In this document: piece after piece, positions 3,205-31,509 of the stretch
How the letters are laid out: each line of letters opens with the position of its first letter
Numbering within the stretch: the stretch's first letter is position 1
Origin: an uncultured Alphaproteobacteria bacterium
GTDB taxonomy: Bacteria; Pseudomonadota; Alphaproteobacteria; Rs-D84; CASDRH01
Reading direction: 5' to 3'
Assembly: GCA_963541805.1 (NCBI GenBank)
Contig: CAUTVF010000002.1
Span: forward strand, 1-36,800
DNA length: 36,800 nt
The notes under the pieces: model-generated
Told to the model about the DNA's origin: nothing
The model's database searches: none
Seen by the model: the letters and a program-made list of their open reading frames with translations, nothing else
Made by a program: the position numbers and the translations under genes

Positions 3205-4079
3205 AAAAAGCTTCTTTTAAATTCAGCATAGCACAGCAAATTACATTTACTCGTGTCACACGCAATTTTGTTTCTTGCTGAAATTTTGTATTTATAATCA
3301 GTATTTAAATCAGCTAAAACCGTAAAATCCTTACAAGACCAAAATAATTGTAATTTTTCGTCAATATCAAATCCATCTGGCTCGCAAATACATTTTTTAC
3401 CTTGGAGATTTAATAATTTTTTAATATATTCGGATTGCGAAACTAATTTTGAATTTATATAAAATTCATCAACATTCAAATTTCTTTTAACTCTATCCAT
3501 ACTAAAATTTTCAAATATAAAATTCATAACTTCCTTATATTTTTCAGTTCCAACAAGTTGGGACAGTGGAGAAATATTTAATTCACCATTTATTAATTTT
3601 GCAATTTGTTTATATTGATCTAAATATGGAATAATATTTTCAATCCTATCAATTGGTAAATTCATATTTACAACACCGTCCCACGAATTTAAAAAATTAA
3701 ACGTCTTTTCAAAATTAAAATATTTAATATGAGGACTAATCGTTACAATTATTTTTGGATTTTTAATTATTTTTTCTAAGTTTGATGTATTTGTAATAAT
3801 TTCGACGACTTTAATATTATCGACTTCGCAAAGTCTTTGGAGTTCCAAATCAAAATCTTTTATTAATGTTGGCTCTCCGCCAAGAATTGCAATAAGAAAA
3901 GTGAATTCGGAATTAAATTTTACAAAATCAATTATTCTATCGAAATAATAATGAGTATCAAAATATTTTTTATTCAATCTTGATTTCGCAAAACAATATG
4001 AACAATTATAATTACAAAACATACTAGGATATATGTCAAGTGAAAAATCAATCGGATTTTTTGCTTCAAATACTGTCAT
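3198..4079 (-). CDS. radical SAM protein with Cys-rich C-terminal (SPASM/twitch-like) extension
   Basis: CNYNCSYC motif and GGEPTL motif. The C-terminus carries seven Cys (KKCICEP, WSCKD, CDTSKCNLLC). The start overlaps the polB-N stop (ATGA). Confidence 0.85.
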   Translation of the reverse strand: MTVFEAKNPIDFSLDIYPSMFCNYNCSYCFAKSRLNKKYFDTHYYFDRIIDFVKFNSEFTFLIAILGGEPTLIKDFDLELQRLCEVDNIKVVEIITNTSNLEKIIKNPKIIVTISPHIKYFNFEKTFNFLNSWDGVVNMNLPIDRIENIIPYLDQYKQIAKLINGELNISPLSQLVGTEKYKEVMNFIFENFSMDRVKRNLNVDEFYINSKLVSQSEYIKKLLNLQGKKCICEPDGFDIDEKLQLFWSCKDFTVLADLNTDYKYKISARNKIACDTSKCNLLCYAEFKRSFLC

Positions 4080-5695
4080 ATAAGTTTTCTAGATTCCAAT
4101 TCTTTTTTAATTTCTGCCGCTTTATTGCGATGTCCAAGCATTTTCAATTTATATCTTTTTCTATTGTTGAAACCGGCTTCAATTAATTCTGGAATAATAC
4201 CTTTTTTTGATTTATCAAAATGTGTTCCAAATAGCGATCCGCATAAATTATACTTTTGCAGCAATTTCGAATATTTATCAAATCTATGAGTATCCTTGAA
4301 ATATTCATTAATGTGATATAATTCGTCTTCGCTTAAATTTAGATTTTGGATTTCCAATTGCAAATCTTTTGGCAAATCTTTGAATTCCACTAATGTTTCT
4401 GGACTAATATTAAATGCCATAATTTGAGATGGATACATACTATTGACATCAAGAGAAAAGCCATAATTACATTTTCCTTTTATTGGATCCATTACAAATC
4501 CGCCTTTTAATTGAATACCAGAAGTATCCTCTGCCTTCATATCATACGATGGTAATATTTGTTTTTTGAGATACGCAGAATTGGCAATATATTGAGCCCA
4601 CGGCATAACAGTTTTTACAGTATCTTTAATATTAACTCCGTAAATTTCTGCCATATTTGTCATTGTATTAAAAATACTCAATTTTAATTCTATTTTATTT
4701 AATATATATACATCAATAATTGCGTAATGAATAAACCATTTATTGCATATTTTAGATATTTCAGCTTCTGATTTTGCATTATATAATTCAAGTTCAAAAG
4801 CTCCCGTTGGCTTAGAATCTGGTCTAATATATCCAGAACCTGTTCGAAATCCGTCGAAAGTTTTGAAACAGTCGTGATTTACTTTTTTAAGTCCGACCTC
4901 GACTTCTGCAATATTGTCGAGAGAATACGAACTTTTTGGCTCAAAATTAAAGTTTTTATAAACTTTCATATAATCAATATACGAAATACCTGGTGAATCA
5001 ACTTCAAAAATTCCTTGATTTAAAACTAATTCATTTAATTTTGATTCTCCATAAGGACTAAAATTAAGTGGAATTCCAAGTTTTGTTGCTCTTGCAAATA
5101 GATATCCGAAGTCAAACCCTTCTCCGTTATATGCAGAAATTATAGCTGGATTTAATGTTTTTATTAGCTTAAAAAATGCAAGAATTAATTCGGCTTCTGA
5201 ATTTAATTTAAAATATTTTAATTTAAAATCAAATACTTCTCCATTAAATGTATAATTACCAGATTCGGATTCCGTATAATCAATTCCTTTGATAAAATCA
5301 GTTAAACTAAAAACAATTACAGTATTTGTTTTTGAATCATAAATCTGGATACATACAATAGTTTCAGGGAATGATTTAGTATCGACGGATCTTTTTGCGG
5401 TTGTTTCAATATCAAGAAACCAATATCTTGGAGATTTGTTATAATTTTTTTGCCAATAAAAATCGCGAATATAACAAAGATCCGGTTTATAATTACCATA
5501 AACTGGTAAATCAGTTTTTTTAGTAATGCGTCGAAGTTTAATTTCAGGATTTAAAAAATATGTAAAATCACCTGAAATGTCCTCAACATACCGTTCATTA
5601 AAGCTTGGAATTTTCTTTATTTTTGATTGATTTCCGTCAAAATATCTTATATAATAATCATAACCAATTCTAAAACTATTTTCAAATGCTTCCAT
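4076..5695 (-). CDS. gp43: family-B DNA polymerase, N-terminal fragment (3'-5' exonuclease domain, motif A, first half of fingers)
   Basis: ExoI FLDIETT, ExoII YNGEGFDFGYL, ExoIII YAIIDVY and Pol motif A LDVNSMYPSQI are present. The ORF ends before motif B. Confidence 0.9.
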   Translation of the reverse strand: MEAFENSFRIGYDYYIRYFDGNQSKIKKIPSFNERYVEDISGDFTYFLNPEIKLRRITKKTDLPVYGNYKPDLCYIRDFYWQKNYNKSPRYWFLDIETTAKRSVDTKSFPETIVCIQIYDSKTNTVIVFSLTDFIKGIDYTESESGNYTFNGEVFDFKLKYFKLNSEAELILAFFKLIKTLNPAIISAYNGEGFDFGYLFARATKLGIPLNFSPYGESKLNELVLNQGIFEVDSPGISYIDYMKVYKNFNFEPKSSYSLDNIAEVEVGLKKVNHDCFKTFDGFRTGSGYIRPDSKPTGAFELELYNAKSEAEISKICNKWFIHYAIIDVYILNKIELKLSIFNTMTNMAEIYGVNIKDTVKTVMPWAQYIANSAYLKKQILPSYDMKAEDTSGIQLKGGFVMDPIKGKCNYGFSLDVNSMYPSQIMAFNISPETLVEFKDLPKDLQLEIQNLNLSEDELYHINEYFKDTHRFDKYSKLLQKYNLCGSLFGTHFDKSKKGIIPELIEAGFNNRKRYKLKMLGHRNKAAEIKKELESRKLI

Positions 5696-7266: not shown

Positions 7267-7323
7267 TTAAATCCTTTCTTTTTTATTAGAATTATATAAT
7301 ATTAAAACTGAAATTTCACGTAA
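7267..7323 (-). promoter_or_regulatory. conserved promoter and leader cassette (GTGAAA, 17 nt, TATAAT, SD GAAAGGA), copy 1
   Basis: Minus-sense sequence: ttacgtgaaatttcagttttaatattatataattctaataaaaaagaaaggatttaaATG. The -10 box is at 7291-7296. Confidence 0.5.
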
Positions 7324-7346
7324 TTTAAATCGGTTGTTTTTAGCGC

Positions 7347-7381
7347 GTAGACGTAGTGCCTCTAAGATTTAGTTTGATCCC
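7347..7381 (-). promoter_or_regulatory. 34-nt conserved upstream motif, copy A (80 nt upstream of ATG 7266)
   Basis: Plus-strand spelling: gtagacgtagtgcctctaagatttagtttgatcc. Confidence 0.6.
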
Positions 7382-7482
7382 TTTTGATTTAATTATAATA
7401 TATTAAAGTTTACTAATTTTATGCATAAGCATATTTTTAGTATTTTAATTTGCGATTTTAAAAATGCAAAATTTTACACCTA

Positions 7483-7498
7483 TAACATTTAAATGTAA
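7483..7498. repeat. 16-nt palindrome family, copy 3 (TAACATTTAAATGTAA)
   Basis: One mismatch. Lies inside the 7267-7670 cassette. Confidence 0.55.
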
Positions 7499-7583
7499 AA
7501 ATTGTAATTTTTTGAATTTTTTAAACCGAGATTTTAATTTTTTTACGAATTTTAACCGAAGGTTTGGATTCGTTATTTTAAGA

Positions 7584-7649
7584 GCGCCATACCAGAATTT
7601 TTTGTTTTATTATATAATATATAATAAAATGAATTTAATTTCCGGCTGC
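7584..7649. repeat. core long palindrome, copy 2
   Basis: gcgccataccagaatttttt...tatataatatataataaaa...tttccggctgc. Confidence 0.7.
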
Positions 7650-7659
7650 TTTCAAAAAT

Positions 7660-7674
7660 TTAGCCGAAGGCTAA
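7660..7674 (-). terminator. mini-hairpin terminator candidate overlapping the stop codon of the ligase-like gene
   Basis: TTAGCC-GAA-GGCTAA, followed on the minus strand by ATTTTTG. Confidence 0.4.
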
Positions 7675-9110
7675 GATTTTGAATTTTTAAATATTTGGAG
7701 TAAAGAATTATAGAATTTATGAATTTCTTTTGGAGTATTTGCTTTAAAAAATTCGAAATTGTCAATCGAATCAATCACCTTGCTTGCAGAAATTGCACTC
7801 GAATTTCTCGGAGTTTCAACGACTTTTACTCCAGGTAAATATTTTGCAACTTGATTGGAATAGTCCTCAAATCGATCAGTTCCGCATAAAATAACATTTA
7901 TATTAATTGGACATTTACTAACAATACTTGGCAAATATCCAGAATTTACATTTATAATGTCAATACTTGGGAATGCTGCTTTTAGCATTTGATTTCTAAT
8001 AATTTCATAATTTTTTGTTTCCTTATTTGAAACAAGTGCAATTACTCCGCCATCATATTTTTTTAATCCATTTTTAATAATATCATAGTGAGCGTTTGTT
8101 AAAATTCTCATTTTACCTAAAAATAAGAAATTATTATTTCCCTCAAAATGCTGAATTAATTTCTTTTTTGCTAAACTTTGAATATCGTCTTTTATTTGAG
8201 TTAAATTTTTCTTTGGATGCTGAAACGTTATTTTATAATTCTTTATTGCATTTGAAAGGTTTATGAGCGAGTCAGAAATTTGACCTTTTAGCGGAATTCC
8301 ATTCAATAATAAATCTGCCGATTTCCCAACAAAATTCCAATAATCAGATTCTGTTGTAGAATCGGCTCTCCATTTGTCTTTTATAATTGCTCTTGCTGCT
8401 TGATCGACTTGATAAGATTGTTGAATTTTGACTTTATAATTTGGATAATTTAAAACAACACCTTCTTCCTTGCCTCCAAATTTTGAATCCAAATCAAGCA
8501 ATATTTTTGAAACTTCTGATATGAATTCCAAACAACTTTCATATGAATCTAAATCCAATTTAACTTTGCATTTAAAATCTTTTAAGAAGCCCTCAAAAAC
8601 AACCGGAGGTTCCGGAATTCTAAGTATTTTAGAATATTGACTTCTTAATGCAGTTTCAAATCCAGAAGCATTTGATTTTACAATACCATTTGAAATTCTG
8701 ATTGAACTGCTTGAATAAGCAAGAATTGTTAGGCCGTGTTTTGAATAATTTGAACTGAGAGTCGGCTTCTTCATTGCGAATTCACAAAATATTTCTGTAT
8801 TTATTGGAATTGATTTATAATTTGAAATTGTTTTTAAATGATCAAAAATTAATTTAAATTGTGAATTAGCAATTGAGCTAGTTCGGATTTCAGAATCAGT
8901 TGAATAACTATATTCATTTGGATATTGAATCTGCCCTTTATATGCAACAATAAAATCTTTTAATGGATTTCCAGAATTATCAATATGGTATAGTGATATT
9001 TTAACACCATCTATTTTTTGCTCGATTTTTACTGGATTTGTCAGTAGTTCAATAACTTTTTTATAATTATTTAAATAATTTGAAATAGGTTTAATCGAAA
9101 TATCGAGCAT
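7671..9110 (-). CDS. ligase-like covalent nucleotidyltransferase fused to an HxGH/ISxT-type (cytidylyl/adenylyl-transferase-like) C-terminal domain
   Basis: Ligase motifs: I KIDG, III EIFCEF, IV EEGVVL, V YKVKIQ. The C-terminus has FLGKMRILTNAHYDII (degenerate HxGH) and SAISASKV (ISxT-like). Ends in the rare stop TAG. Confidence 0.6.
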   Translation of the reverse strand: MLDISIKPISNYLNNYKKVIELLTNPVKIEQKIDGVKISLYHIDNSGNPLKDFIVAYKGQIQYPNEYSYSTDSEIRTSSIANSQFKLIFDHLKTISNYKSIPINTEIFCEFAMKKPTLSSNYSKHGLTILAYSSSSIRISNGIVKSNASGFETALRSQYSKILRIPEPPVVFEGFLKDFKCKVKLDLDSYESCLEFISEVSKILLDLDSKFGGKEEGVVLNYPNYKVKIQQSYQVDQAARAIIKDKWRADSTTESDYWNFVGKSADLLLNGIPLKGQISDSLINLSNAIKNYKITFQHPKKNLTQIKDDIQSLAKKKLIQHFEGNNNFLFLGKMRILTNAHYDIIKNGLKKYDGGVIALVSNKETKNYEIIRNQMLKAAFPSIDIINVNSGYLPSIVSKCPININVILCGTDRFEDYSNQVAKYLPGVKVVETPRNSSAISASKVIDSIDNFEFFKANTPKEIHKFYNSLLQIFKNSKS

Positions 9111-9136: not shown

Positions 9137-9790
9137 TTATTCAAATGTAAATAATTGTGCAACTCTATAATATATTTTCTTATGATAACCTGCAGTTTGG
9201 GAACCATAATAACGCATAAGCATTGATTCGGTAATATTTTTTGCTTTTGGTAATTTTGGTAATTTTTTAAGTTCATTTAAAATAAAGGCAGAGGCAGCAA
9301 CATTTGCTTCTATTTCAAACAAATCGGATCTTATTTTAGCAATGTTAGCATTTCTAAGTTTAGTTCCCCAAAATTCCCATACAACTCCGCCAAGACCAAC
9401 TGCTTTTATTTTCTTATTTAGGCTTTTGATATATGTCGAATTGTGCTCGATCTTTGGATGCATTTCTGATTCTGTTTTTAAAACAGCATAAAGAATACAA
9501 GGATCAACATCATAAATATCACTATATTTGAATATACTTGACATTATTTCGGATTTTTCGGATTTTGATAAATGATTATAAGAATCCAAGTCAGATTGCA
9601 TTGCGACTTGATAATTTTTTGTGAAATCAATATAATTCTCGTAATATGCATTTTTTAATGCGAGAAAAGCGAGATCAAGTTTAATAGTATTATTATGCGT
9701 AGTCTCTGGAACTGATGCAATTGAGAGTTTTACAAAGACGCATAATATAATTATTAAAACGCCTAAAACTCCGTAATTGATTTTACTCAT
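9137..9790 (-). CDS. membrane-anchored lytic transglycosylase (SLT-domain-like), candidate endolysin
   Basis: N-terminal hydrophobic anchor INYGVLGVLIIILCVFV. Also LKTESEMHP (catalytic E-S) followed by VGLGGV. Confidence 0.5.
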   Translation of the reverse strand: MSKINYGVLGVLIIILCVFVKLSIASVPETTHNNTIKLDLAFLALKNAYYENYIDFTKNYQVAMQSDLDSYNHLSKSEKSEIMSSIFKYSDIYDVDPCILYAVLKTESEMHPKIEHNSTYIKSLNKKIKAVGLGGVVWEFWGTKLRNANIAKIRSDLFEIEANVAASAFILNELKKLPKLPKAKNITESMLMRYYGSQTAGYHKKIYYRVAQLFTFE

Positions 9791-9961
9791 TTTAGGTATT
9801 TCCTTTTAAAACTATTTATTTTTTGTATTTTTAAATATTACAAAATTGCTTTGTATATTTTAAAATTAACAAAAATTCAATGTAACTTGAAATGTTTGTC
9901 AATTTTAAATTTTTAAGAATGCAAAAATATAACAAAATTGCTTCATAGAAAGGGCATTTTG

Positions 9962-10261
9962 TCAATCCCAAAACTTATTTAAATTATCGCGATAAAGATT
10001 CCAGAAGTTTTTCCAACGAACTTCACACTCTTCAGCAGATCCTTCTAAATCGATTATTTTTTCAAGCATTTCAATTAATTCGTTAATTGTTACCAAATCG
10101 TTTTCAAAACCTTCATAGTGGCATTTATTCCAATAATCGCGTTTTATTTTAAGTTGAACTAGTAGTAAGTCCAAATCAAATCCATAATCATACCAACGGT
10201 AACTCCAAATGACTTTGAAAAATCGTTTAAGCATTTTTAAGCTATCAAAGAATTGCTGCAA
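9962..10261 (-). CDS. hypothetical protein (TTG start)
   Basis: 99-aa ORF. The start codon is TTG, preceded by AGGAG with a 6-nt spacer. Confidence 0.5.
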   Translation of the reverse strand: MQQFFDSLKMLKRFFKVIWSYRWYDYGFDLDLLLVQLKIKRDYWNKCHYEGFENDLVTINELIEMLEKIIDLEGSAEECEVRWKNFWNLYRDNLNKFWD

Positions 10262-10274
10262 TTTGAACTCCTAT

Positions 10275-10424
10275 TTTAAGAAGTGCAAAGAAAAAAGTTG
10301 TCATTATAAGCATATTTAATATTAATACTATAAAAGTATTTTTAATTTCAAGAACCAATAACTGCGCAACAAATAATGCAAAGGATATAAAAACCAAAAT
10401 AAAAATATAAGCAAATAGTAACAT
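10275..10424 (-). CDS. 49-aa hydrophobic micro-protein (two predicted TM segments); not in the ORF track
   Basis: My translation: MLLFAYIFILVFISFALFVAQLLVLEIKNTFIVLILNMLIMTTFFLCTS. SD AAAGGAT lies 6 nt upstream of the ATG. Confidence 0.4.
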
Positions 10425-10436
10425 TTCAAAATCCTT

Positions 10437-10505
10437 TTAGAAAACATAAAAACTAAAAATAAGCAGCGCCGCTAAACAAACAAATAAAAGATTCGGCTCA
10501 AGCAT
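10437..10505 (-). CDS. 22-aa hydrophobic micro-protein; not in the ORF track
   Basis: My translation: MLEPNLLFVCLAALLIFSFYVF. SD AAGGAT overlaps the stop of the preceding micro-ORF. Confidence 0.35.
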   Translation of the reverse strand: MLEPNLLFVCLAALLIFSFYVF

Positions 10506-10507
10506 TG

Positions 10508-10585
10508 TTAATCCTTTGATGCAGTATAAATTGTAAATAAAACGACAAAAAATGTGCAAATAATTGCAATAGAATTTGTATCCAT
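10508..10585 (-). CDS. 25-aa hydrophobic micro-protein; first ORF behind a promoter cassette; not in the ORF track
   Basis: My translation: MDTNSIAIICTFFVVLFTIYTASKD. SD GAAAGGAT lies upstream, with a TATAAT box and the 34-nt motif further upstream. Confidence 0.35.
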   Translation of the reverse strand: MDTNSIAIICTFFVVLFTIYTASKD

Positions 10586-10664
10586 ATTAAATCCTTTCTT
10601 TTGATTGTATTATACCTAAATTTAGCTTAAAAATCACTGAATAAAAATATAGATTTTAAAATAA

Positions 10665-10699
10665 GTAGACGTAGTGCCTCCAAGATTTAGTTTGATCCC
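10665..10699 (-). promoter_or_regulatory. 34-nt conserved upstream motif, copy B (79 nt upstream of ATG 10585)
   Basis: gtagacgtagtgcctccaagatttagtttgatcc. Confidence 0.6.
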
Positions 10700-10932
10700 T
10701 TTTGAATATTTATTATATTCAAAAAAAGTTTACTTAATTTTATGCCTCGCATTATAAAAGTTAATTTTTTGATTTTTAATTTGGGATTTATAAAAATGCA
10801 AAATTTTACTAATTTTATACTAAAGTATAATTTGAGTAATTTTTTGATTTTTAATACAAGTTTGAATTTTTAAATGGATTTTGATTTTTTTTACGGAATT
10901 TAAACGGAGATTTTAAGTGCGTAATTTTTAGA

Positions 10933-11002
10933 GCACCATACTAGAAATTTTTATTTTATTATATAAATTTATATAATAAAATAAATTTAATTTCCGGTCG
11001 CC
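10933..11002. repeat. core long palindrome, copy 3
   Basis: gcaccatactagaaattttt...atataaatttatataataaaa...tttccggtcgcc. Confidence 0.7.
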
Positions 11003-11090
11003 TTCAAAAAATACTTATGAAATGCATAAGCATAAAATTAGTAATTTTTTGATTTGTAGATTCAAAATTTAGTAGTTAGAATATTGAAAA

Positions 11091-12146
11091 TTAATCAAAT
11101 GAAATATTGTTATAAATTTCGAATTTAAATCGAATTTTATATTTTGTCGGTAATTTGGAAGATTCAGATTCTCCAAGTTCTGGAACTTGTAAATTTAAAT
11201 CTAATTCAGGATTTATATCAAATCTTGCAACACTTAAAAAATCCAATTCAGAAATTGTTACTTTTAATAAGTCATTAAGTTTTAAAAAAATCGGATTTGA
11301 ATTAAAAATATATTTTGTATCTTTTAGTGCAAACGAATCTGGTAACTTTTTTAAATCAGTATGATAAATTTTTGAGCCATTAACACTATAATATAATGTA
11401 TATTCGGCATCAATTTCAATTGTAGATCCAGCCGGAATTTTATTCAAATCCGGATTTATTCGAAATCCATCGGAATCTAAAATTCTAACAATTTCATAAT
11501 TTGAGCTTTTTGAAAGTTTAAAAAATTGAGGCTCAAATACCGCAGTTTCATATAATTTTGGCATTTTAAATATTTCGGATGCAATTGGATCATCAATTCC
11601 AGAATCTGCATAAAATAGTTTTGTATAATCAGTATTTAATGTATCCGCATCCTCGATATCCGTATTCAAATCATTTATACTAATTGGGAATTCGCGAGAT
11701 TCAAAATCAACAGTATCAACATTTAAATCGTCTAATATTTTAAATTGATAAGTTTCATCGAGTTTAGTTGTATCAATAAAATTCTCAAATTTATCAACAG
11801 TGTCATAAATATCAACATATCCTGATTTCCATCCATAAATGCTTTGATAAAATCCTTGCTGAACAAATCCAAAACTATCATAAATTTTTGGAATATTATC
11901 ATTTAATGAAAATGTTATTAGATTTCCAAAGTTTTTATGAAGCTCTCCGTTAATTTCAAAAGTATCATAAATAAAAAGTCCAGAATTTCCAACATATTCA
12001 ACGGAACCGCTAAAATCTAAATTTCTGCCATTTACATTAAAATGTGAAACTACAGGATGATAGTAATGCGCGAATATTTTTTCGGATTCTAAATCTTTTG
12101 AATATTTCACATATCCAGAATTGCGAAACCAAGGATCAAAAGACAT
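11091..12146 (-). CDS. virion structural protein (baseplate/fibre operon), function unknown
   Basis: 351-aa ORF, last in the baseplate operon. Its frame stays open upstream for 41 codons to the TAG of the preceding ORF. Confidence 0.6.
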   Translation of the reverse strand: MSFDPWFRNSGYVKYSKDLESEKIFAHYYHPVVSHFNVNGRNLDFSGSVEYVGNSGLFIYDTFEINGELHKNFGNLITFSLNDNIPKIYDSFGFVQQGFYQSIYGWKSGYVDIYDTVDKFENFIDTTKLDETYQFKILDDLNVDTVDFESREFPISINDLNTDIEDADTLNTDYTKLFYADSGIDDPIASEIFKMPKLYETAVFEPQFFKLSKSSNYEIVRILDSDGFRINPDLNKIPAGSTIEIDAEYTLYYSVNGSKIYHTDLKKLPDSFALKDTKYIFNSNPIFLKLNDLLKVTISELDFLSVARFDINPELDLNLQVPELGESESSKLPTKYKIRFKFEIYNNISFD

Positions 12147-12269
12147 TTTAGTTACTTCATTTGACGCAAAATCGGCGCTTTTGAAATCCTTTAAAACTTG
12201 CTTTGCAATTAAATCACTATTAAAATAACTTTCAAGTCTTTTTGAATTTCTAAAATTTATTTGATACCA

Positions 12270-13832
12270 CTATGAATCTCTTGTTGATTTACTATCAAAA
12301 TAGATATCCGGTCTAAAAGTAATCGATTCCATTAATAAATTATTAGAATCTCTTAATTCTATTGTATGATCTGCTGCGTCCAATTTTGGTATTTTAAATT
12401 TACCTGATTTAAATTGAGCTTCTGAAATTTCAAATGTATTTGAATCAATACTTAAGAAAAATGGGAATGTATCCGATTTTTCAATATTTGGAACATAAAA
12501 ATATACGTAATTTTTTAAAATCCTATCAAATATTGGCCTTATTTTATTTCTCGAAAGTCTATAAAGTGCTTTAAAATCAGACGGCTTTAGAGATCCGTTA
12601 ACAACTCGAGTTCCATATGAAACATCAGCAGTCGGGAGTCTATCCATTCCGAGTTTCCAATTTTTTGATCCTACAAAAACATTACCTGCGCCAACAACTA
12701 TTTTATTACCTGCAGTTTCTGCAAGACCAAAATCAAATTGAAATGATACTAAATCTTTTACTGATGTAACAATTTTAGAAGTATATGCAAGCTCAATTGC
12801 GCAATGTTTTGATTCAACTGGATATATTTTCTTTTCTTTAAATGGCTTTGAAGTTCCTAAAGGATAATAAAGAATTAAAGATCTTGGCTTTGAGATTTGA
12901 ACTAATCTTTCTCCGGATTCAAATTCAATTGTCAATGTTTTAACACCTTTTGATTCAACTTTATCAATTGATTTTATTGTATTATTAATGACTAATTTTA
13001 AATCTTCAAAATCCTCAAAAATACTATAAAATTTTCCAAATCTGGTAACATCCTTTTTAATTTTTGAATCGCAAACTATTTTAAGGGATTTTTTATTGTT
13101 ATATAATGTTTCATTTTTAAGACCAGTTTGAAATAAAAATCCAGTATTTGCTTTAAAGTCATCGGTAATGCCAGAATCACAAACAATTCTAAATGTTGTA
13201 ATATCAAATATTTCTTTGCTTAAAAAATAGTCTTTCCATCGAAGCTCATAAATTCTAAAATATATGTAAGCCCATCCAACTGGATGGGACAAAACTTTTA
13301 CGTAACTTTCAAAAATCTCTGGAAGCATTTCGCCTTCGACGATATATTCCAAAACATTTGGGCCTTCGTATATTTTGAATGCATCCGAGGTTTCAAGAAC
13401 TCCTTGTTCTAATGAAAATTTATTAATCAAATGATATATATATTCAATTGAATTAAATGTTCCTTTAGTTTGTCCGAATATTTTCCAAGTTTGGAGCATT
13501 TCTGAATTTAAATAATCAATTACATTGATATCAATTACTAAATCTTGCCATTTTTCATATTTTACGTGCTTATGATATTCTTTTAAAATATCAAGCAATT
13601 TATGATTGTTATTATTATCAGTTATGCACTTGTAAAAATCTGCAGCATATGTTTTTATAATTTCCTCATAAAGAACTGGATTTCCTGAATCAAATAATGC
13701 TTTAATATCAACGGAGACTTTTGAATGTTTCCAAATAAAATCAACGAAAACATCCATTGTATCCTTTATAAGTTTTATATTTTTAAAATTTTCTGGAATT
13801 ATTGCTTTTATTGCTGCTTTTGAATATGCCAT
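12270..13832 (-). CDS. virion structural protein (baseplate wedge operon), function unknown
   Basis: 520-aa ORF immediately downstream of the gp6-like gene. Ends in the rare stop TAG. Confidence 0.6.
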   Translation of the reverse strand: MAYSKAAIKAIIPENFKNIKLIKDTMDVFVDFIWKHSKVSVDIKALFDSGNPVLYEEIIKTYAADFYKCITDNNNNHKLLDILKEYHKHVKYEKWQDLVIDINVIDYLNSEMLQTWKIFGQTKGTFNSIEYIYHLINKFSLEQGVLETSDAFKIYEGPNVLEYIVEGEMLPEIFESYVKVLSHPVGWAYIYFRIYELRWKDYFLSKEIFDITTFRIVCDSGITDDFKANTGFLFQTGLKNETLYNNKKSLKIVCDSKIKKDVTRFGKFYSIFEDFEDLKLVINNTIKSIDKVESKGVKTLTIEFESGERLVQISKPRSLILYYPLGTSKPFKEKKIYPVESKHCAIELAYTSKIVTSVKDLVSFQFDFGLAETAGNKIVVGAGNVFVGSKNWKLGMDRLPTADVSYGTRVVNGSLKPSDFKALYRLSRNKIRPIFDRILKNYVYFYVPNIEKSDTFPFFLSIDSNTFEISEAQFKSGKFKIPKLDAADHTIELRDSNNLLMESITFRPDIYFDSKSTRDS

Positions 13833-18658: not shown

Positions 18659-18712
18659 TTTGATATTTTATAATGTTTTAGTTTAATTTTTAAACGGAGA
18701 TTTAATTTTTAA

Positions 18713-18746
18713 GTAGACGTAATGCCTCTTGAATTTAGTTTGATCC
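18713..18746 (-). promoter_or_regulatory. 34-nt conserved upstream motif, copy C (54 nt upstream of ATG 18658)
   Basis: gtagacgtaatgcctcttgaatttagtttgatcc. Confidence 0.6.
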
Positions 18747-18892
18747 TTTTTAATATTTATATTTTATAATATTTTAGTTTACATTTTTTAAAAAATTACT
18801 AATTTTATGCTTCGTATTATAAAAGTAAATTTTTGATTTTTTGATTTTAATACGATTTTTAACCTACGGTTAATAAATTTGCAATTTTAAGC

Positions 18893-18961
18893 GCACCATA
18901 CCAGAAAATTTATTTTTATTATAATAATATTATAATAAAATAAATTTAAATTCCGGTTCGC
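18893..18961. repeat. core long palindrome, copy 4, flanked by ~43-nt inverted arms (18851-19008)
   Basis: gcaccataccagaaaattt...ataataatattataataaaa...ttccggttcgc. Arms: tacgatttttaacctacggtta... and ...aaccttcggttaaaaatcgta. Confidence 0.7.
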
Positions 18962-19115
18962 TTAAAAATTACGAATCTAAACCTTCGGTTAAAAATCGTA
19001 AAATTTTGTATTTTATAAAATCTCGATTACAAAATTATAAAAAATTCAAAATCTTAATCATTTTACATCCAAATGTTAAATTATTAATTTTTTGCAACTT
19101 TAATATGATATAATT

Positions 19116-19149
19116 GGATCAAACTAAATTCAAGAGGCACTACGTTTAC
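19116..19149 (+). promoter_or_regulatory. 34-nt conserved upstream motif, copy D, inverted (56 nt upstream of ATG 19206)
   Basis: ggatcaaactaaattcaagaggcactacgtttac, the reverse complement of the other copies. It faces the plus-strand spike gene. Confidence 0.6.
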
Positions 19150-19181
19150 TCGATTTTTAATACTTAAATCTTTGTTTAAAA

Positions 19182-19189
19182 TATAAATA
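19182..19189 (+). promoter_or_regulatory. T4-type late promoter box TATAAATA upstream of the spike gene
   Basis: Exact TATAAATA, 16 nt before ATG 19206. Confidence 0.5.
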
Positions 19190-19205
19190 TTTAAAAAGCT
19201 TAAAA

Positions 19206-21252: not shown

Positions 21253-21309
21253 TTTACATCCTTTCTTTTTATTAGAATTATATAATTTTTAAACTGAATT
21301 TTCACGTAA
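21253..21309 (-). promoter_or_regulatory. conserved promoter and leader cassette, copy 2
   Basis: Minus-sense sequence: ttacgtgaaaattcagtttaaaaattatataattctaataaaaagaaaggatgtaaaATG. The -10 box is at 21277-21282. Confidence 0.5.
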
Positions 21310-21341
21310 TCTAAAACGGAGATTTGAAATTAGATTTTTAA

Positions 21342-21375
21342 GTAGACGTAATGCCTCCAAGATTTAGTTTGATCC
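21342..21375 (-). promoter_or_regulatory. 34-nt conserved upstream motif, copy E (89 nt upstream of ATG 21252)
   Basis: gtagacgtaatgcctccaagatttagtttgatcc. Confidence 0.6.
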
Positions 21376-21470
21376 TAATTATATCATATCAAGGTTTACT
21401 AATTTTATGCTTCGCATTATAAAAGTTAATTTTTTGAATTTTTTGTCAACGAATACAAAAAATTAATAAT

Positions 21471-21486
21471 TTAACATTTGAATGTA
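21471..21486. repeat. 16-nt palindrome family, copy 6 (TAACATTTGAATGTAA)
   Basis: Two mismatches. Lies inside the 21253-21650 cassette. Confidence 0.45.
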
Positions 21487-21519
21487 AAATGATTTGGATT
21501 TTGAATTTTTAAGCAACGA

Positions 21520-21600
21520 TTTATAAAAAATTTTTGTTTGTATATATAAATTTATATAATAAAAATTTTTTATGGTGCTGCAAATAAACCTACGGTTAAG
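21520..21600. repeat. degenerate, inverted copy of the core palindrome module
   Basis: tatatataaatttatataataaaaattttttatggtgctgc...aacctacggtt. GGTGC is on the opposite strand relative to the other copies. Confidence 0.45.
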
Positions 21601-21616
21601 AATTTAGAATATTAAA

Positions 21617-21643
21617 AAACTCCCTTTAAAATCAAGGGAGTTT
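21617..21643 (-). terminator. rho-independent terminator after the tail sheath gene
   Basis: Minus-sense sequence: AAACTCCCTT-gatttta-AAGGGAGTTT followed by TTTAATATT. 10-bp stem with GC pairs, immediately after stop 21651. Confidence 0.7.
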
Positions 21644-21650
21644 ATAGAAG

Positions 21651-23816: not shown

Positions 23817-24119
23817 TTACTCGACAACAGTTAGTTCAAGAGTTTTTACAATCTCGGACTTCTCATAACCATCCGCAGATACCTCAAATGTTAATTTGTT
23901 GTCATTTGCGTGATTAAATGCAGTATAGTGGCCTGGAGTTCCAAGAAGCTCAAACTTTAGAACAATATTATCAGCTGTTGAGCTAGCATCCTTTGAAATT
24001 TTTAGCAAAGTATCAATATTTGAACCTTTGTATTCAACTTTTGCATTTGCTGGAACTTTATCAGAAACTGCACATTTCAACTTATCTCCGTGTCTTAGAT
24101 CAAACTTATAGTCTGCCAT
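23817..24119 (-). CDS. small Ig-like-domain protein
   Basis: The block TFEVSADGYEKSEIVKTLELTV parallels the domain ends of neighbouring ORFs. TAATG coupling to the upstream gene; own SD AAAGGA. Confidence 0.55.
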   Translation of the reverse strand: MADYKFDLRHGDKLKCAVSDKVPANAKVEYKGSNIDTLLKISKDASSTADNIVLKFELLGTPGHYTAFNHANDNKLTFEVSADGYEKSEIVKTLELTVVE

Positions 24120-25726
24120 TATGAATCCTTTTTAATTGTTATTTTTGCGGTTGCTTTATTTGGGATCTTCGATAGATCAACTTTTGCTGTTGCTTTGTTT
24201 ATTTTTTCAATATTTACATTCGCAGTTGCTTTATTTAGAACTTTAGAAATCTCGATATTTGCACTAGCTGGAGGAGTAAATAATTCTAATTTAACTTTTG
24301 CTGAAGCTTTTTTAATTGCAGAAATCTCGATATTTGCGGTTGCTTTTTTAGCTTCTTTTGTTATATCAATTTTAGCAGTTGCTTTATTTGGAACTTTAGA
24401 AATTTCGATATTTGCAGTTGCTTTTTCAAGTTTCTTTTCTTTAATTACAATTGTATTAGTTACTTCAGTTGGTGAATACCCGTCTTTAGAAATTGTAATT
24501 TTTATTTTCGAAACTCCAACTTTTTTACCAGTAATTCGTTTATTTACTGTGTCAACTTCAATATTTTCAGAACCTTCAATTACTTCTACTTTTGCAATTG
24601 CGTCTGCCGGAGTATATTCAAGTGTAAAATCTTTGAATTCATCGACTTTAATTTCAGATGGAATTACAATATTTGAATTAATTACTGGTAAACTATGAAT
24701 TTCTAAATCTTTTGAAACTGTATTTGGTCGGTATCCAGATTTTTTAGCAGTTACAAGTAAATTAGAAATACCAACTCGGCTTGGAGTTATAGTTCCTTTA
24801 ACAAATTTACCATCTTCTTTGCTAGTTATAACAAATCCAAGAGTATTTGTAGAATCAGTTACTGTTATTTCACCTGAACTAAAAATTGCTACATTATATG
24901 TTTTACCAATTTGTAAATTAGACTCGTTTTCCACAGTTGCTGATAAATCAACAGTTTCAATATCAGCAATTTTAAATTCTGTTGTAAAAACAGAAGTTCT
25001 AAAATTGTCTGCAGAAGCTTCAAATGTTAATTTTACAGAATCTGTTGGCTTAATAAGCTCAATTGCTTTTGAATTTGGATATAGTGTTACTGAATCATTG
25101 CTTGCAGAAACTGTTACCTTAATATCTTTTGGCGCTACAGGACTAATTTTATAAGTTAGCATATTGCCGACTTTAAAATTATTCTCAATTTCATCGCCTT
25201 CAATTTTAACAGTAAAATCAACTGCTGGAACATAATCAGGATTTGATTTTTCGACCATAACATTTGATACGTCGAGAACATCATAAGTTGTTGAGCCAGA
25301 AGTTGAAATAGAAATTACATCACCATTTTTAAACTTATCAGTCGGCTCAAAAAATAATGATGCTCCATTTGATTCAACATATTTAACATCTAATTTTGTT
25401 CTTGTATTATCAAGTTGGTGAACAGAATCCCAGAAAACCGGACTTATTGAAGTTAATGCACCATTTAAGTCGCCTGCGCGAGATACATATATTGCACCAG
25501 AATATTGCAAATAATTATAAACTTGATACCAGTCGTTATAATTATCTTTATTAGGGCCTCCGAAAATATCCTCAAGTTCTTGGGTCGTTGAAATTTTAGT
25601 CCAAGCACCTATTGCGCCTTTTTCGAAGTTTCCGGCAAATACAGCATCCGAATCGCCTGAGCTAACTGTTACTGGAGATTTATCAACTTCAGAAACGAGG
25701 ACACCGGGAGATAGGAGAGTTGCCAT
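24119..25726 (-). CDS. gp18: tail sheath N-terminal segment (gp18 residues ~1-95) fused to Ig-like domains and a C-terminal 8x peptide repeat
   Basis: MATLLSPGVLVSEVDKS...AVFAGNFEKG...ELEDIFGGP...NYLQYSGAIYVSRA is colinear with T4 gp18 MTLLSPGIELKETTVQS...ALAGKFQWG...NTFGQP...NFLQYGNDLRVVRA. Repeated domain ends follow: SGYRPNTVSKDLEI and DGYSPTEVTNTIVI. Confidence 0.75.
   Translation of the reverse strand: MATLLSPGVLVSEVDKSPVTVSSGDSDAVFAGNFEKGAIGAWTKISTTQELEDIFGGPNKDNYNDWYQVYNYLQYSGAIYVSRAGDLNGALTSISPVFWDSVHQLDNTRTKLDVKYVESNGASLFFEPTDKFKNGDVISISTSGSTTYDVLDVSNVMVEKSNPDYVPAVDFTVKIEGDEIENNFKVGNMLTYKISPVAPKDIKVTVSASNDSVTLYPNSKAIELIKPTDSVKLTFEASADNFRTSVFTTEFKIADIETVDLSATVENESNLQIGKTYNVAIFSSGEITVTDSTNTLGFVITSKEDGKFVKGTITPSRVGISNLLVTAKKSGYRPNTVSKDLEIHSLPVINSNIVIPSEIKVDEFKDFTLEYTPADAIAKVEVIEGSENIEVDTVNKRITGKKVGVSKIKITISKDGYSPTEVTNTIVIKEKKLEKATANIEISKVPNKATAKIDITKEAKKATANIEISAIKKASAKVKLELFTPPASANIEISKVLNKATANVNIEKINKATAKVDLSKIPNKATAKITIKKDS
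24122..24424 (-). repeat. in-frame tandem repeat encoding eight 12-14-aa units (consensus KATA[NK][IV][ED]I[ST]K[VI]PN) at the C-terminus of the 535-aa sheath-N ORF
   Basis: The eight units are KATANIEISKVPN, KATAKIDITKEAK, KATANIEISAIK, KASAKVKLELFTPP, ASANIEISKVLN, KATANVNIEKIN, KATAKVDLSKIPN and KATAKITIKKDS. The DNA units recur as agaaatytcgatatttgcrgttgcttt. Confidence 0.8.
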
Positions 25727-26590: not shown

Positions 26591-27955
26591 ATGGAATTAA
26601 AAAGAACTCCAAAATCATATCATAATAAATTTACGGATGCAACAAGAATTTCGGACATCTCAATAAAGATTATTGATGCTACGAATAGTAATCAAGTTAT
26701 TATTGAGCACCAAAAAATACAAGAATATGAGCTTAGAACTCGAGATTTTATGCTTGAAGGATTTGTTCAATTTGTAAATGATATTGATTTTGAGACTTCT
26801 TTTAATAATTCAAATAATATTAAAATTGTTATTTTCTTCAAGGATCTTTATGATCGTTATTTTCAGCGCGAATTTCAAGTTACAAAAATTTTGAAATCTG
26901 AAAATGGTAATGTTAAATTTATAACTCTTAATTTTATTGACGCCATTTTTTATATAATGTCCAAAACATTTAAAGCAAAGACAATAAAATCAAAAAATTT
27001 CGAGGACTTAGTAACTCAGGTATTTGATGAATTTGTATATCCAAATCTAATTTCATCAAAACCAATTCTTACTTTTGATTTGCCAAGTTTTGAAAATATT
27101 GAAAATTCTTTATTTTCTACACTTGCAAATGGTGTTAAACAATATAGTCAAATTGCATCAAATACTCTTAATAAAGCAAAATCGGAATTATCAAAAGGCA
27201 ATATAACTGGTGCAATTAATTCAGTTAAATCCGGATTTAATAATATTTCAAAAGTTTTTGGGAATTCTAATTCAGAATTCAAATCAGAAAATCAAAATGC
27301 CGATAATTATTTCAATGTGACTCCGAATAAATCAATTTTACAAATATTGTCCGAGCAGGCAGAATTTAATGGATATTTAATGTATCAAACAAAGAGACAT
27401 ATTGTATTTTTAAAACTTGATAAAGCAAAACCCGCAAATCTTAAAAAATATACCCTTAGTTATAGCAATATTGGTGATTTTAATAGTCCAAATGATGTTC
27501 TCGAATATAAGAGAGTTGGAATTGATGGACTCCAAAAAAATGTAAAAAATAAGGGTCTTTATTTGGATCCAAGTTCAAAAGTCTTTAAAGTTCTCGAAGT
27601 TGATGCAAAATCAGAAGGCCTTACAAATACAAGTGATATCCAATATTCAAATGGAGTTGAATATTCTGAACAATACCAAAGTAATGCAAATAATATTTTT
27701 GCAAATACATATAAAAATTTATTATCAAACTCTGGTATTTTGGCTGTTGTTGTTGGACACATTTGTGATATGGAATTGTTTAGATGTGCTAATTTAAATT
27801 TAGCAGCTTCCGATACTGCATCAACTGCTCAATTTGGATCAATTAAAGAATCTGGATTTTATTTTGTAACATCGTTTACTGATAAGATTTATAATGGTCT
27901 TTATTTTTTACAACTTGTTGGATTTAGCAGATTCGATGATACTAAAATTAAATAA
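26591..27955 (+). CDS. virion structural protein, possibly gp27-like baseplate hub
   Basis: The size and the N-terminal (TRDFMLEGFVQF) and C-terminal (GFYFVTSFTDKIYNGLYFLQLVGFSR) blocks loosely resemble gp27/gpD-type hubs. Not verified. Confidence 0.4.
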   Translation: MELKRTPKSYHNKFTDATRISDISIKIIDATNSNQVIIEHQKIQEYELRTRDFMLEGFVQFVNDIDFETSFNNSNNIKIVIFFKDLYDRYFQREFQVTKILKSENGNVKFITLNFIDAIFYIMSKTFKAKTIKSKNFEDLVTQVFDEFVYPNLISSKPILTFDLPSFENIENSLFSTLANGVKQYSQIASNTLNKAKSELSKGNITGAINSVKSGFNNISKVFGNSNSEFKSENQNADNYFNVTPNKSILQILSEQAEFNGYLMYQTKRHIVFLKLDKAKPANLKKYTLSYSNIGDFNSPNDVLEYKRVGIDGLQKNVKNKGLYLDPSSKVFKVLEVDAKSEGLTNTSDIQYSNGVEYSEQYQSNANNIFANTYKNLLSNSGILAVVVGHICDMELFRCANLNLAASDTASTAQFGSIKESGFYFVTSFTDKIYNGLYFLQLVGFSRFDDTKIK

Positions 27956-27957
27956 AA

Positions 27958-27973
27958 TTACATTTAAATGTAA
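27958..27973 (+). terminator. 16-nt palindrome, copy 7 (exact), 3 nt after stop 27955; terminator candidate
   Basis: ttacatttaaatgtaa followed by attaattaattttttta. Confidence 0.5.
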
Positions 27974-28075
27974 ATTAATTAATTTTTTTATAATTTATAT
28001 ATACAAACAAAATTTTTTAAATTAAATTTTCGGTTAAAAATCAGAATTTTAAACGTAGATTTAATTTACTGACAA

Positions 28076-29134
28076 TTACCATAAATCCTCTAAATTATCA
28101 GTATTTGCTCTCAAATCATATCCAAGAGGCTCAATCATTAACTCAAGTGGAACTAAAAAGAATTTTTCAAAATTCAAATCGAAATCAATAAAATCTCTAA
28201 ATTGATTTGCAAATGTATCGGAATCAAACATAAAAATATTTGATTTAAGTGGATTTGGCTCTCTCAGATACAACATTTTATATTTTGATCCGAGTTCCAA
28301 TTTTTGAAATCTTTCGGGATTTGCATCAATATATTGATTTGTAACCAAGAAAGCTCTTGAATTAATTGGAATTGCCTTTGAAGTTTTTAAATCATAATTA
28401 TCTTTTGTTACACTGCTAACTTTTGCAATACTTGATAACGGTTGAGCCAAATAGATTTTTCTAACTTCTGCTAACCAATTTTTAATTGCATTTAAATCGG
28501 CTTTCATTAATATTTTTACAGCTTCTGAAAGATATTTTCTACAAAAACTCGGCGTCGAACTTCTAATAATATCGAGGCCGTGGACTTTTATTTTTGGCGG
28601 ATCATACCGAGTTCCTTCATCATCAAGCACTGCAATTGCATATCTTTTTTTAGCAACAAATATTGCATTTTCAAAAATTGCTTCGCGCTTTGTTACTAAT
28701 TTTCCTTTGCTAAATGCATTAAAAATATATTCAACAATTTCAGAACTTTTGTTAACAATTGGTTGAAATACACCCTCTACAATTTTATCAAGCGAATCAA
28801 CATTGTATTCAATTGGTAATTTTTTTGGGAATTCGAAATATCCGGAATCAGTATCAGCATATCGTCTATATCCATAATTCGGATTTTTGTCAATTTCTTT
28901 GCATTTTGAATCAATCAAATTTCCAAATAAATTGACATAAAACCGAGAATTGGAAGTTATTGCGCAAGCTATAATCATTTTATTAAGTAAAAATCCTGGA
29001 TTTGCAAGAGCACCATAAAGCGCATTAATCATAACTTTATATGCAAATTGCATATTATCATATGAGTCTGCAAGATCCAATTCTTGGTGATATAAATCAA
29101 GAAGTTCAGAATCTGAAAGTTCGTTTATTTCCAT
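28076..29134 (-). CDS. gp43: family-B DNA polymerase, C-terminal fragment (second half of fingers, palm motif C, thumb)
   Basis: Motif B KVMINALYGAL, motif C YADTDSGYF, and KKRYA. Confidence 0.9.
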   Translation of the reverse strand: MEINELSDSELLDLYHQELDLADSYDNMQFAYKVMINALYGALANPGFLLNKMIIACAITSNSRFYVNLFGNLIDSKCKEIDKNPNYGYRRYADTDSGYFEFPKKLPIEYNVDSLDKIVEGVFQPIVNKSSEIVEYIFNAFSKGKLVTKREAIFENAIFVAKKRYAIAVLDDEGTRYDPPKIKVHGLDIIRSSTPSFCRKYLSEAVKILMKADLNAIKNWLAEVRKIYLAQPLSSIAKVSSVTKDNYDLKTSKAIPINSRAFLVTNQYIDANPERFQKLELGSKYKMLYLREPNPLKSNIFMFDSDTFANQFRDFIDFDLNFEKFFLVPLELMIEPLGYDLRANTDNLEDLW

Positions 29135-29430: not shown

Positions 29431-29451
29431 TTTGAGCCTTGTAAATCAATT

Positions 29452-29655: not shown

Positions 29656-29715
29656 TAGTGAAGTCCTTTCTTTTTTATTAAGATTATATAATATTAAAAC
29701 TGAAATTTCACGTAA
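29656..29715 (-). promoter_or_regulatory. conserved promoter and leader cassette, copy 3
   Basis: Minus-sense sequence: ttacgtgaaatttcagttttaatattatataatcttaataaaaaagaaaggacttcactaATG. The -10 box is at 29683-29688. Confidence 0.5.
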
Positions 29716-29737
29716 TTGTTTTTGACTGGATTTTTAA

Positions 29738-29772
29738 GTAGACGTAGTGCCTCTAAGATTTAGTTTGATCCC
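29738..29772 (-). promoter_or_regulatory. 34-nt conserved upstream motif, copy F (82 nt upstream of ATG 29655)
   Basis: gtagacgtagtgcctctaagatttagtttgatcc, identical to copy A. Confidence 0.6.
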
Positions 29773-29910
29773 TTTTGATATTTATAATTTTATAATATTT
29801 TAGTTGACATTTTTTAAATTTCAAAAACTAACTTTTATAATGCGAAGCATAAAATTAGTAATTTTTTGATTTTTAGAGCAGATTTTGCATTTGTAAAATC
29901 AAACAATAAA

Positions 29911-29918
29911 TATAAATA
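29911..29918 (+). promoter_or_regulatory. T4-type late promoter box TATAAATA upstream of the tail tube gene
   Basis: Exact TATAAATA, 15 nt before GTG 29934. Confidence 0.5.
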
Positions 29919-29933
29919 AAAAAGGTTAATAAA

Positions 29934-31201: not shown

Positions 31202-31209
31202 ATTCCAAA

Positions 31210-31234
31210 AATCCCTCTAGATTTTAGAGGGATT
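31210..31234 (+). terminator. stem-loop after the scaffold-like gene
   Basis: AATCCCTCTA-gattt-TAGAGGGATT starts 9 nt after stop 31201. The trailing T-run is weak. Confidence 0.45.
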
Positions 31235-31258
31235 CTAAATCTTATTTAATTTTATATT

Positions 31259-31318
31259 AAAAATCAAAAAATTACTAATTTTATGCTTATGCATTATAAA
31301 AGTTAATTTTTGATTTTT
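31259..31318. repeat. second hairpin family (AAAAATCAAAAAATTACTAATTTTATGC, loop, GCATTATAAAAGTTAATTTTTGATTTTT)
   Basis: Related copies lie at about 7404-7430, 10729-10777, 10804-10852, 18796-18845 and 21396-21440. Inverted copies lie at 11022-11056 and 29833-29878. Confidence 0.6.
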
Positions 31319-31379
31319 AAAATGGATTTTGATTTTTTTACGGAATTTAAACGGAGATTTTGAATTCGTAATTTTAAGA

Positions 31380-31450
31380 GCACCATACCAGAAAATTTTA
31401 TTTGTTTATTATATAATATATAATAAAATAAATTTATTTTCCAGCCGGCT
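31380..31450. repeat. core long palindrome, copy 5
   Basis: gcaccataccagaaaatttt...tatataatatataataaaa...ttttccagccggct. Confidence 0.7.
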
Positions 31451-31470
31451 TCAAAAAATTAGCCGCAGGC

Positions 31471-31509
31471 TTGAATTTTGAAATTTTGAAATTTTGAAAT
31501 ATTGAAATC
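31471..31509. repeat. short tandem octamer repeat (GAAATTTT-like, about 4.5 copies) between the helicase stop and its hairpin
   Basis: ttgaattttgaaattttgaaattttgaaatattgaaatc. Confidence 0.6.

Follow-up and report, generated by a model that had tools for sequence, protein, structure and literature searches.

A multi-module intergenic cassette of constant order, probably marking operon boundaries, in a Campylobacter-group-II-like myovirus

Known intergenic repeat systems and the present locus

Promoter-early stem-loops (PeSLs; Arbiol et al. 2010, PMC2839356; Comeau et al. 2014, PMC4122927) are repeated promoter and stem-loop cassettes of T4-type phages for which both promoter and terminator activity have been demonstrated (PMC2839356), and which are also associated with mini-circles and with a role in indels and replacements that end in the motif (PMC2839356, PMC4122927). 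A second set of intergenic repeats is found in the Campylobacter group II phages CP220, CPt10 and CP21, whose repeat regions RR1-RR4 are extragenic and AT-rich, contain internal palindromes and are thought to be recombinogenic; those of CP220 are tandem arrays of 3-18 nearly identical units of 72-86 bp, with a 13-nt core, AAACTTAAAGCAA (PMC2853527, PMC4546147). Mosaics of extragenic imperfect palindromes and short linker motifs also make up the REP/BIME elements, which are chromosomal, linked to RAYT transposases and situated mostly at the 3' ends of genes. In phage T7, a conserved family of repeated intergenic hairpins serves as RNase III processing sites with a defined internal-loop structure.

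The window analysed here is the whole of one contig (C2), a stretch of 36,800 nucleotides from a bin of 83 contigs and 918 kb. It has the ORFs of a T4-like myovirus, among them those for the tail sheath, tail tube, gp5-like baseplate hub, a gp23-like protein and a helicase, and a DNA polymerase of family B is encoded as two pieces. The tail sheath is 62% identical to its counterparts in the Campylobacter group II phages CP220, CPt10, CP21 and IBB_35, and a search of viral contigs with this protein returned matches limited to CP220, CPt10, CP21 and one short contig; a nucleotide search of a phage collection with window positions 10000-12500 gave zero matches. A tblastn search with every ORF of the bin against CP220 assigned at least 12 contigs (~159 kb, 26-28% G+C) to the phage, whose genome is fragmented and whose genes were called as greedy ORFs. 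On the other contigs there is an RpoB (C32, 4385-8542) that is 58-59% identical to those of Alphaproteobacteria MAGs, and the phage is therefore either co-binned with, or infecting, a small low-GC alphaproteobacterium, whose MAG makes up ~0.76 Mb of the bin. The presence of a Campylobacter-group-II-like myovirus there may be an artefact of binning or else an indication of its host. Homing-endonuclease-like genes are present on the phage contigs (C49).

Compared with PeSLs, the non-coding gap at 10586-11090 of the window and its sister copies show several similarities. Both systems consist of dozens of intergenic repeats in which promoter boxes overlap or adjoin a stem-loop and which end at the Shine-Dalgarno (SD) sequence and start codon of the next gene, and in both the copies are substrates of homologous recombination. 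Here there are 26 cassettes, whose conserved 34-mer precedes a start codon by 3-90 nt, in the orientation of the gene, in 18 of 19 copies, and promoter-like hexamers are found within the arms of covarying hairpins. A PeSL, however, is one short motif whose stem is G/C-rich and whose sigma-70 consensus is clear, and PeSLs cluster in hyperplastic regions, whereas the present units measure 300-650 nt and combine at least five modules in a set order with AT-rich stems and a conserved leader of 34 nt. Furthermore, indels that end in the motif were not found among the cassettes, sequence exchange being seen only inside them. By analogy, the cassette is best read as functioning like a much enlarged PeSL.

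With the group II repeat regions, the cassettes share a phage lineage (as judged from the tail sheath), an AT-rich, extragenic and palindromic character and the property of breaking assemblies. In contrast to the tandem arrays of CP220, they are dispersed, have a constant order and contain one to three hairpin (HP) units interspersed with other modules. The cassette thus resembles the Campylobacter group II repeat regions, yet it has no sequence in common with the CP220 repeats: there are no exact matches to the core AAACTTAAAGCAA in the assembly and 10 matches with one mismatch (compared with 11 for the reversed control), none of which lies in a cassette, the five module profiles gave no nhmmer matches to CP220, and the 34-mer is absent from CP220. 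The HP unit had been suspected by eye to be a homologue of the CP220 72-bp unit, and this was rejected by the profile search. REP/BIME elements offer a likeness in their mosaic composition, and differ in that the cassette has promoter-proximal parts; in addition, the assembly (92% complete) contains no match to the Y1/RAYT transposase family PF01797. The T7 RNase III sites are similar as repeated, conserved intergenic hairpins of a phage genome, with sequences unrelated to the cassette.

Anatomy, order and orientation of the cassettes

Profile HMMs made from the window copies of the modules and searched across the assembly located, in the phage contigs, 48 HP units, ~16 copies of CORE (a long AT-rich imperfect palindrome), 22 of the short hairpin ACGG, 19 of the 34-mer (M34) and 10 of PROM2, a gene-proximal promoter/5'UTR block. 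The host contigs (~750 kb) contain zero strong matches to the modules, and only eight weak matches to HP. The phage copies make up about 26 cassettes of five or more ordered modules, which account for 9.5 kb (6%) of the phage DNA and fill nearly all of its long intergenic gaps; operon-internal genes abut or overlap. In the window the cassette gaps total 2.7 kb, in agreement with the ~3 kb estimated in the preliminary description of this DNA.

Module order is constant, and orientation is set by the flanking gene, in 26 of 26 cassettes. In the sense of the downstream gene, a stop codon is followed by a hairpin, of the G/C or HP kind, that ends in TTTTTTGAAG, by CORE and by ACGG with its UUCG hairpin; then come one to three HP units, a late-promoter-like box, M34, PROM2 or a second TATAAT if present, the ribosome-binding site (RBS) and the ATG. 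Some cassettes are without the CORE-ACGG half and others without the M34 half, and the copies in related metagenome contigs have an identical module order. The preliminary description had held that the modules recur in different order and orientation. In fact, the order does not vary and the orientation tracks the flanking gene, the divergent gaps appearing inverted because they are mirror images of the standard order. A module order that is fixed rather than shuffled had been named in that description as the outcome at odds with its own proposal of shuffling, and its presence in all cassettes counts against that proposal.

Within the window, a complete sister cassette is found at 7267-7670 on the minus strand (CORE, ACGG, HP, HP, M34, PROM2), and one without CORE and ACGG at 21253-21650 on the same strand (HP, HP, M34, PROM2). 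Partial cassettes that consist of HP, ACGG and CORE, again on the minus strand, are located near the contig start (162-391) and, lacking M34, between convergent gene ends (31202-31509). The divergent cassette at 18659-19205 is a mirror image around a single CORE, with M34 and HP directed leftward on one side and ACGG, HP and M34 directed rightward on the other, and a second gap of this kind is found on another phage contig (C9, 6840-7480). In the divergent gap at 29656-29933, PROM2 and M34 point leftward, while HP and a TATAAATA box (29911-29918) point rightward to the tail tube gene. CORE, ACGG and HP are therefore not confined to gaps with an upstream gene that needs termination, being present in divergent gaps as well. 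A lone HP unit at 27938-27997 is situated between convergent genes, which is the position of a bidirectional terminator.

The gap at 10586-11090 lies on the minus strand with respect to its genes, and each of its modules was found where the preliminary description had listed it. Directly after the stop codon of the gene at 11091-12146 there is an HP unit with a GC apex (11004-11060), the inverted hairpin copy which that description had reported; on the gene strand it forms a stem-loop followed by the T-run TTTTTTGAAGG, and is thus terminator-like toward the upstream gene. Next to it is CORE (10923-11003), bounded by the G/C clamps CCGG...CTAG/CTGG and with a TATAAT on each strand at its centre, and then the ACGG hairpin (10881-10921), here with the apex variant AAATCTCCGTTT. 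In most copies ACGG has the form ACGAAT..AACC-TTCG-GGTT..ATTCGT, and its hairpin contains a C(UUCG)G tetraloop; the AAACGGAGATTTT module is located at 10902-10914. Two more HP units follow, one with a TAC apex variant (10795-10854; TTATAC-TAAA-GTATAA) and the other with a GC apex (10724-10779; ATGC-CTC-GCAT), the latter containing promoter-like hexamers on the gene strand (TTAAAA-17-TATAAT and TTAACT-16-TAAAAT). The small palindrome TTGAATATAATAAATATTCAA (10702-10722) contains TATAAT and AATAAATA, and is similar to the TATAAATA box that precedes the capsid and tail tube genes. It is succeeded by M34 (10665-10698; GGATCAAACTAAAT-N5-GAGGCACTACGTCTAC) and by a gene-proximal stretch (10586-10664) that includes the palindrome CTAAATTTAG, a TATAAT (10609-10614) and the RBS GAAAGG (10593-10598).

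The start codon after the gap (ATG, 10583-10585, minus strand) opens a 25-aa hydrophobic mini-ORF (10508-10585, minus strand) with a good RBS, downstream of which are membrane mini-ORFs of 22 and 59 aa, both preceded by an AAGGA RBS. Since the ATG at 10585 has a good RBS and is followed by membrane mini-ORFs and a transglycosylase, this left boundary of the gap is credible. The whole run at 9137-10585 on the minus strand comprises five hydrophobic mini-ORFs (25, 22, 59, 99 and 46 aa), all of which have an AAGGA RBS, and then an SLT-like transglycosylase, and it may be a lysis cluster under the control of the cassette.

That the gap has no credible ORF, as originally proposed, is borne out, the only ORFs in it being 21-43 aa long. 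Overlap with the repeated modules led us to regard these and other small ORFs within cassettes (for example 7464-7682) as spurious. Searches of Rfam gave no match at the gathering score across the window, and none at E <= 1 for positions 10400-11200. As a whole, the gap folds far better than its shuffles (z = -6.1 on the gene strand). A G+C-based scan detected no G+C-rich terminators because the stems are AT-rich.

The 34-mer, promoter-like boxes and covarying hairpins

Four copies of M34 are present in the window at no more than 3 mismatches, compared with 0.00 expected, and 17-19 copies in the assembly, exclusively on phage contigs. Across 19 copies the element is bipartite, with GGATCAAACTAAAT and GAGGCACTACGTCTAC separated by 5 variable bases, and in 18 of them it is aimed at a downstream start codon that is 3-90 nt away. 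Among viral contigs, the full 34-mer pattern has zero matches and a 16-mer derived from it has 10, none of which carries the full 34-mer; a genome contig collection likewise gave zero matches to the 34-mer. The exceptional copy (C21, 14082-14125), which is accompanied by a promoter-like box, points into the 3' end of an opposite-strand gene that is radical-SAM-like, and every other copy has a downstream gene that shares its orientation.

Just 5' of M34 there is a (T/A)ATAAATATT or (T/A)ATAAATATTCAAAAG box, or a TATAAT 1-2 nt away, and promoter-like hexamers (TTGTCA/TTGCAA-18-TATAAA) precede the element. The box TATAAATA, which is like that of T4-type late promoters, is situated 15-30 nt ahead of the tail tube gene (box at 29911-29918) and of the major capsid gene (C49, ~30 nt ahead of position 2563). 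The phage also has a gene for a gp55-like late sigma factor (C9, 6108-6839), itself preceded by a weak 34-mer. By analogy with the late promoters of T4, M34 would start within a few bases of a transcript start. A sigma-70 consensus scan of this AT-rich DNA returned 6 promoter-like sites, compared with 8.3 expected from shuffles, and hence no excess. Among the operons behind M34 are those with the baseplate hub, the late sigma factor and the C-terminal part of the polymerase; with replication and structural genes both represented, no single timing class fits.

The sense strand of M34 contains an SD-like GGAGG or AGAGG, in most copies without a nearby start codon. On the antisense strand, M34 ends in AGTTTGATCC, which is identical to a 10-nt stretch at the universal 5' end of 16S rRNA genes (the 27F primer region); this likeness, together with the GGAGG, may be due to chance.

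For the hairpin units, 23 HP copies were aligned without gaps from their centres and scored for their fit to the symmetric structure; this alignment replaced an analysis of uncentred units with MAFFT and RNAalifold that had yielded no structure owing to register errors. In the centred alignment, 78% of the cells are paired, compared with 72% in shuffles and 38-48% with slid partners, and the covariation score is 0.313, compared with 0.167 in shuffles (0 of 500 reach 0.313) and at most 0.082 with slid partners. At five pairs of positions (14:41, 15:40, 23:32, 24:31 and 25:30) there are 2-4 pair types, and all 23 copies are paired. CORE and the UUCG hairpin vary too little among the present copies to inform such a comparison. 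The compensatory stem change initially noticed between two hairpins of the gap is therefore real and general, five stem positions covarying across the HP copies, and the HP hairpins are selected as hairpins.

Stability depends on the strand in a manner that differs between modules. HP stems range from -5 to -18 kcal/mol and have T-rich tails on both strands, with the better face antisense. Unexpectedly, both HP (37 of 45 copies) and ACGG (18 of 19) fold more stably, and have tails richer in T, on the strand opposite the genes (9.2 T of 14, compared with 7.7 of 14 on the gene strand), whereas CORE favours the gene strand in 10 of 14 copies. A count of G-U against A-C pairs, intended to pick the folded strand, gave 14 versus 6, a difference that is not significant.

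Functional reading, exchange between copies and gene order

We read the gap, with a probability of roughly 60%, as a composite cassette of terminator/insulator, promoter and leader that marks operon boundaries and is homogenised by recombination between copies. According to this composite-cassette reading, the terminator-like hairpin would close the upstream gene, and CORE, the UUCG hairpin and one to three 50-nt HP units, with their A-run/T-run flanks, would stop or insulate transcription in both directions. The late-type (T/A)ATAAATA box and/or the TATAAT directly before M34 would then form the promoter region and M34 the first part of the transcript, as a 5' leader, with the gene-proximal part, often including a second TATAAT box, leading to the RBS and the gene. 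The promoters, the terminators and the role of M34 as a leader are predictions from sequence features. Because the ~26 copies are long and similar, they would be substrates of the homologous recombination of the phage, and segment exchange (gene conversion) would in consequence keep them alike.

Several observations favour the composite-cassette reading, namely the confinement of the modules to the phage, their position at boundaries and constant order, the placement of M34, the late-promoter-like box together with a gp55-like sigma factor, the lone HP unit between convergent genes, stem covariation, fold stability and the precedent of the PeSLs. Against it are the lack of an excess of promoter-like sites over shuffles and of G+C-rich terminators, the presence of CORE, ACGG and HP in divergent gaps, the M34 copy on C21 that points into the 3' end of a gene and the mixture of timing classes behind M34. 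The antisense stability of HP and ACGG is also not predicted by a plain terminator of the upstream gene. In an alternative that we consider unlikely, the cassette would be a self-homogenising regulatory unit made up of hairpins selected on the antisense strand, either as insulators against divergent transcription or as single-stranded DNA hairpins, and of a 34-nt docking leader. The insulator hairpins would in that case stop divergent transcription from symmetric AT-rich promoters, and the GGAGG leader, lacking a start codon, would dock a ribosome or protein and so protect or time the mRNAs of ~19 operons.

Exchange of sequence between the copies was examined in close relatives of the phage, represented by 10 metagenome contigs that are 81-93% identical to the phage contigs and in which the genes flanking the cassettes are collinear. 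Of 133 windows of 40 nt taken from the cassettes of the relatives, 92 match a paralogous cassette of this genome better by >=10 bits and 0 match the orthologous one better by that margin, and windows of near-identity number 31 with paralogues as compared with 3 with orthologues. The flanking coding sequence, used as a control, favours the ortholog in 179 of 213 windows. Furthermore, one relative (L070) has an orthologous cassette in which the promoter-type segment is swapped for another while M34 and the adjacent HP are identical, in a second relative (L096) ~260 nt of modules are missing inside the cassette of C36, and 8 of the 24 phage contig ends lie within cassettes. Assembly chimeras are an unlikely source of the matches to paralogues, because the identical stretches are shorter than the read length and the flanks are orthologous. 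The cassette copies thus exchange sequence in a mosaic fashion.

These same results (the segment exchange, the different promoter-type segment in the L070 ortholog, the modules absent in L096 and the contig ends) are what could be cited for the suggestion that the cassettes are mainly recombination or shuffling junctions, at which rearrangements and gene swaps occur, and comparable claims have been made for the CP220/CP21 repeat regions and for PeSLs. The suggestion, which is that of the preliminary description, holds as far as recombination between copies is concerned; it fails in that module order and orientation are constant relative to the genes and that gene-order breaks, which had been said to coincide with the cassettes, are not enriched there. 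Among adjacent gene pairs of which both members have CP220 homologues, the junction is broken relative to CP220 in 15 of 17 cases with a cassette and in 66 of 76 without one (Fisher p = 1.0). The polymerase gene, presented earlier as an example of a split at a cassette, is divided elsewhere: its parts (4076-5695 and 28076-29134, both on the minus strand) are 22 kb apart here and adjacent in CP220, and both abut or overlap neighbouring genes, away from cassettes. One of them encodes the exonuclease domain and the start of the polymerase, and the other the C-terminal part of the polymerase.

The comparison with close relatives leads in the same direction, as each testable cassette, being internal to the relatives' contigs, has collinear flanks there. 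No gene indels are seen at cassettes in these relatives, and the two that were detected are elsewhere, in cassette-free spacers: an additional 80-aa gene in L070 at window 29431-29451, and the absence of a 325-aa gene of C36 in L044. Shuffling at the cassettes as their main role is consequently improbable. Overall, gene order relative to CP220 (L010-L018) is scrambled at ~87% of junctions despite 30-70% protein identity, and this rearrangement is far beyond that among classical T4-like phages.

The analysis therefore separates two ideas that are usually merged, the mutual recombination of repeats, which is observed, and a change of gene order caused by repeats, which is unsupported here. The cassettes are also a much more ordered version of the repeat regions of such phages, with a unit of 300-650 nt, a 34-nt leader before ~19 operons and exchange between copies. 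They would supply these regions with concrete elements, namely a promoter, an insulator and a leader, and such repeats account for the fragmentation of the phage genomes in assemblies.

Elements that act at the RNA level, with the long palindrome and hairpins as processing or stability sites of polycistronic RNA (of the RNase III type, as in T7) or with short non-coding RNAs encoded by the cassette, with the 34-mer as a ribosome-docking 5' stabiliser, are a quite improbable explanation. Stem covariation, the C(UUCG)G tetraloop hairpin, the greater stability of CORE on the gene strand, the SD-like GGAGG of the 34-mer, mostly without a nearby start codon, and the presence of antisense promoter-like hexamers immediately before a hairpin and U-run would all be in keeping with such a role. 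However, covariation leaves RNA and DNA structure undistinguished because the units are DNA palindromes, the strand preference varies by module, the G-U count does not single out a strand and the Rfam searches gave zero matches.

Structures that act at the DNA level, as hairpins or cruciforms of single-stranded or supercoiled DNA, whether N4-type hairpin promoters, sites of replication or recombination initiation or targets of a structure-specific or homing nuclease, are very unlikely, as is a selfish spreading repeat: the long AT-rich palindromes, the stability of HP and ACGG specifically on the non-coding strand, the frequent exchange between copies, the homing-endonuclease-like genes and a long, asymmetric and bipartite 34-mer that resembles a nuclease or protein site would be compatible with them, but module order and orientation are bound to the genes, terminal inverted repeats and target duplications are lacking, the assembly has no Y1 transposase, and there is no single-subunit RNA polymerase among the CP220-like genes. 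Mobility of the MITE or IS200 type was rejected on the grounds of the missing Y1 transposase and terminal repeats and the gene-tied orientation.

A repeat of a different kind is present at 24126-24433 of the window, within the ORF of a 535-aa gene next to the sheath gene (24119-25726), where direct repeats with a period of 39 nt probably reflect repeated protein domains.
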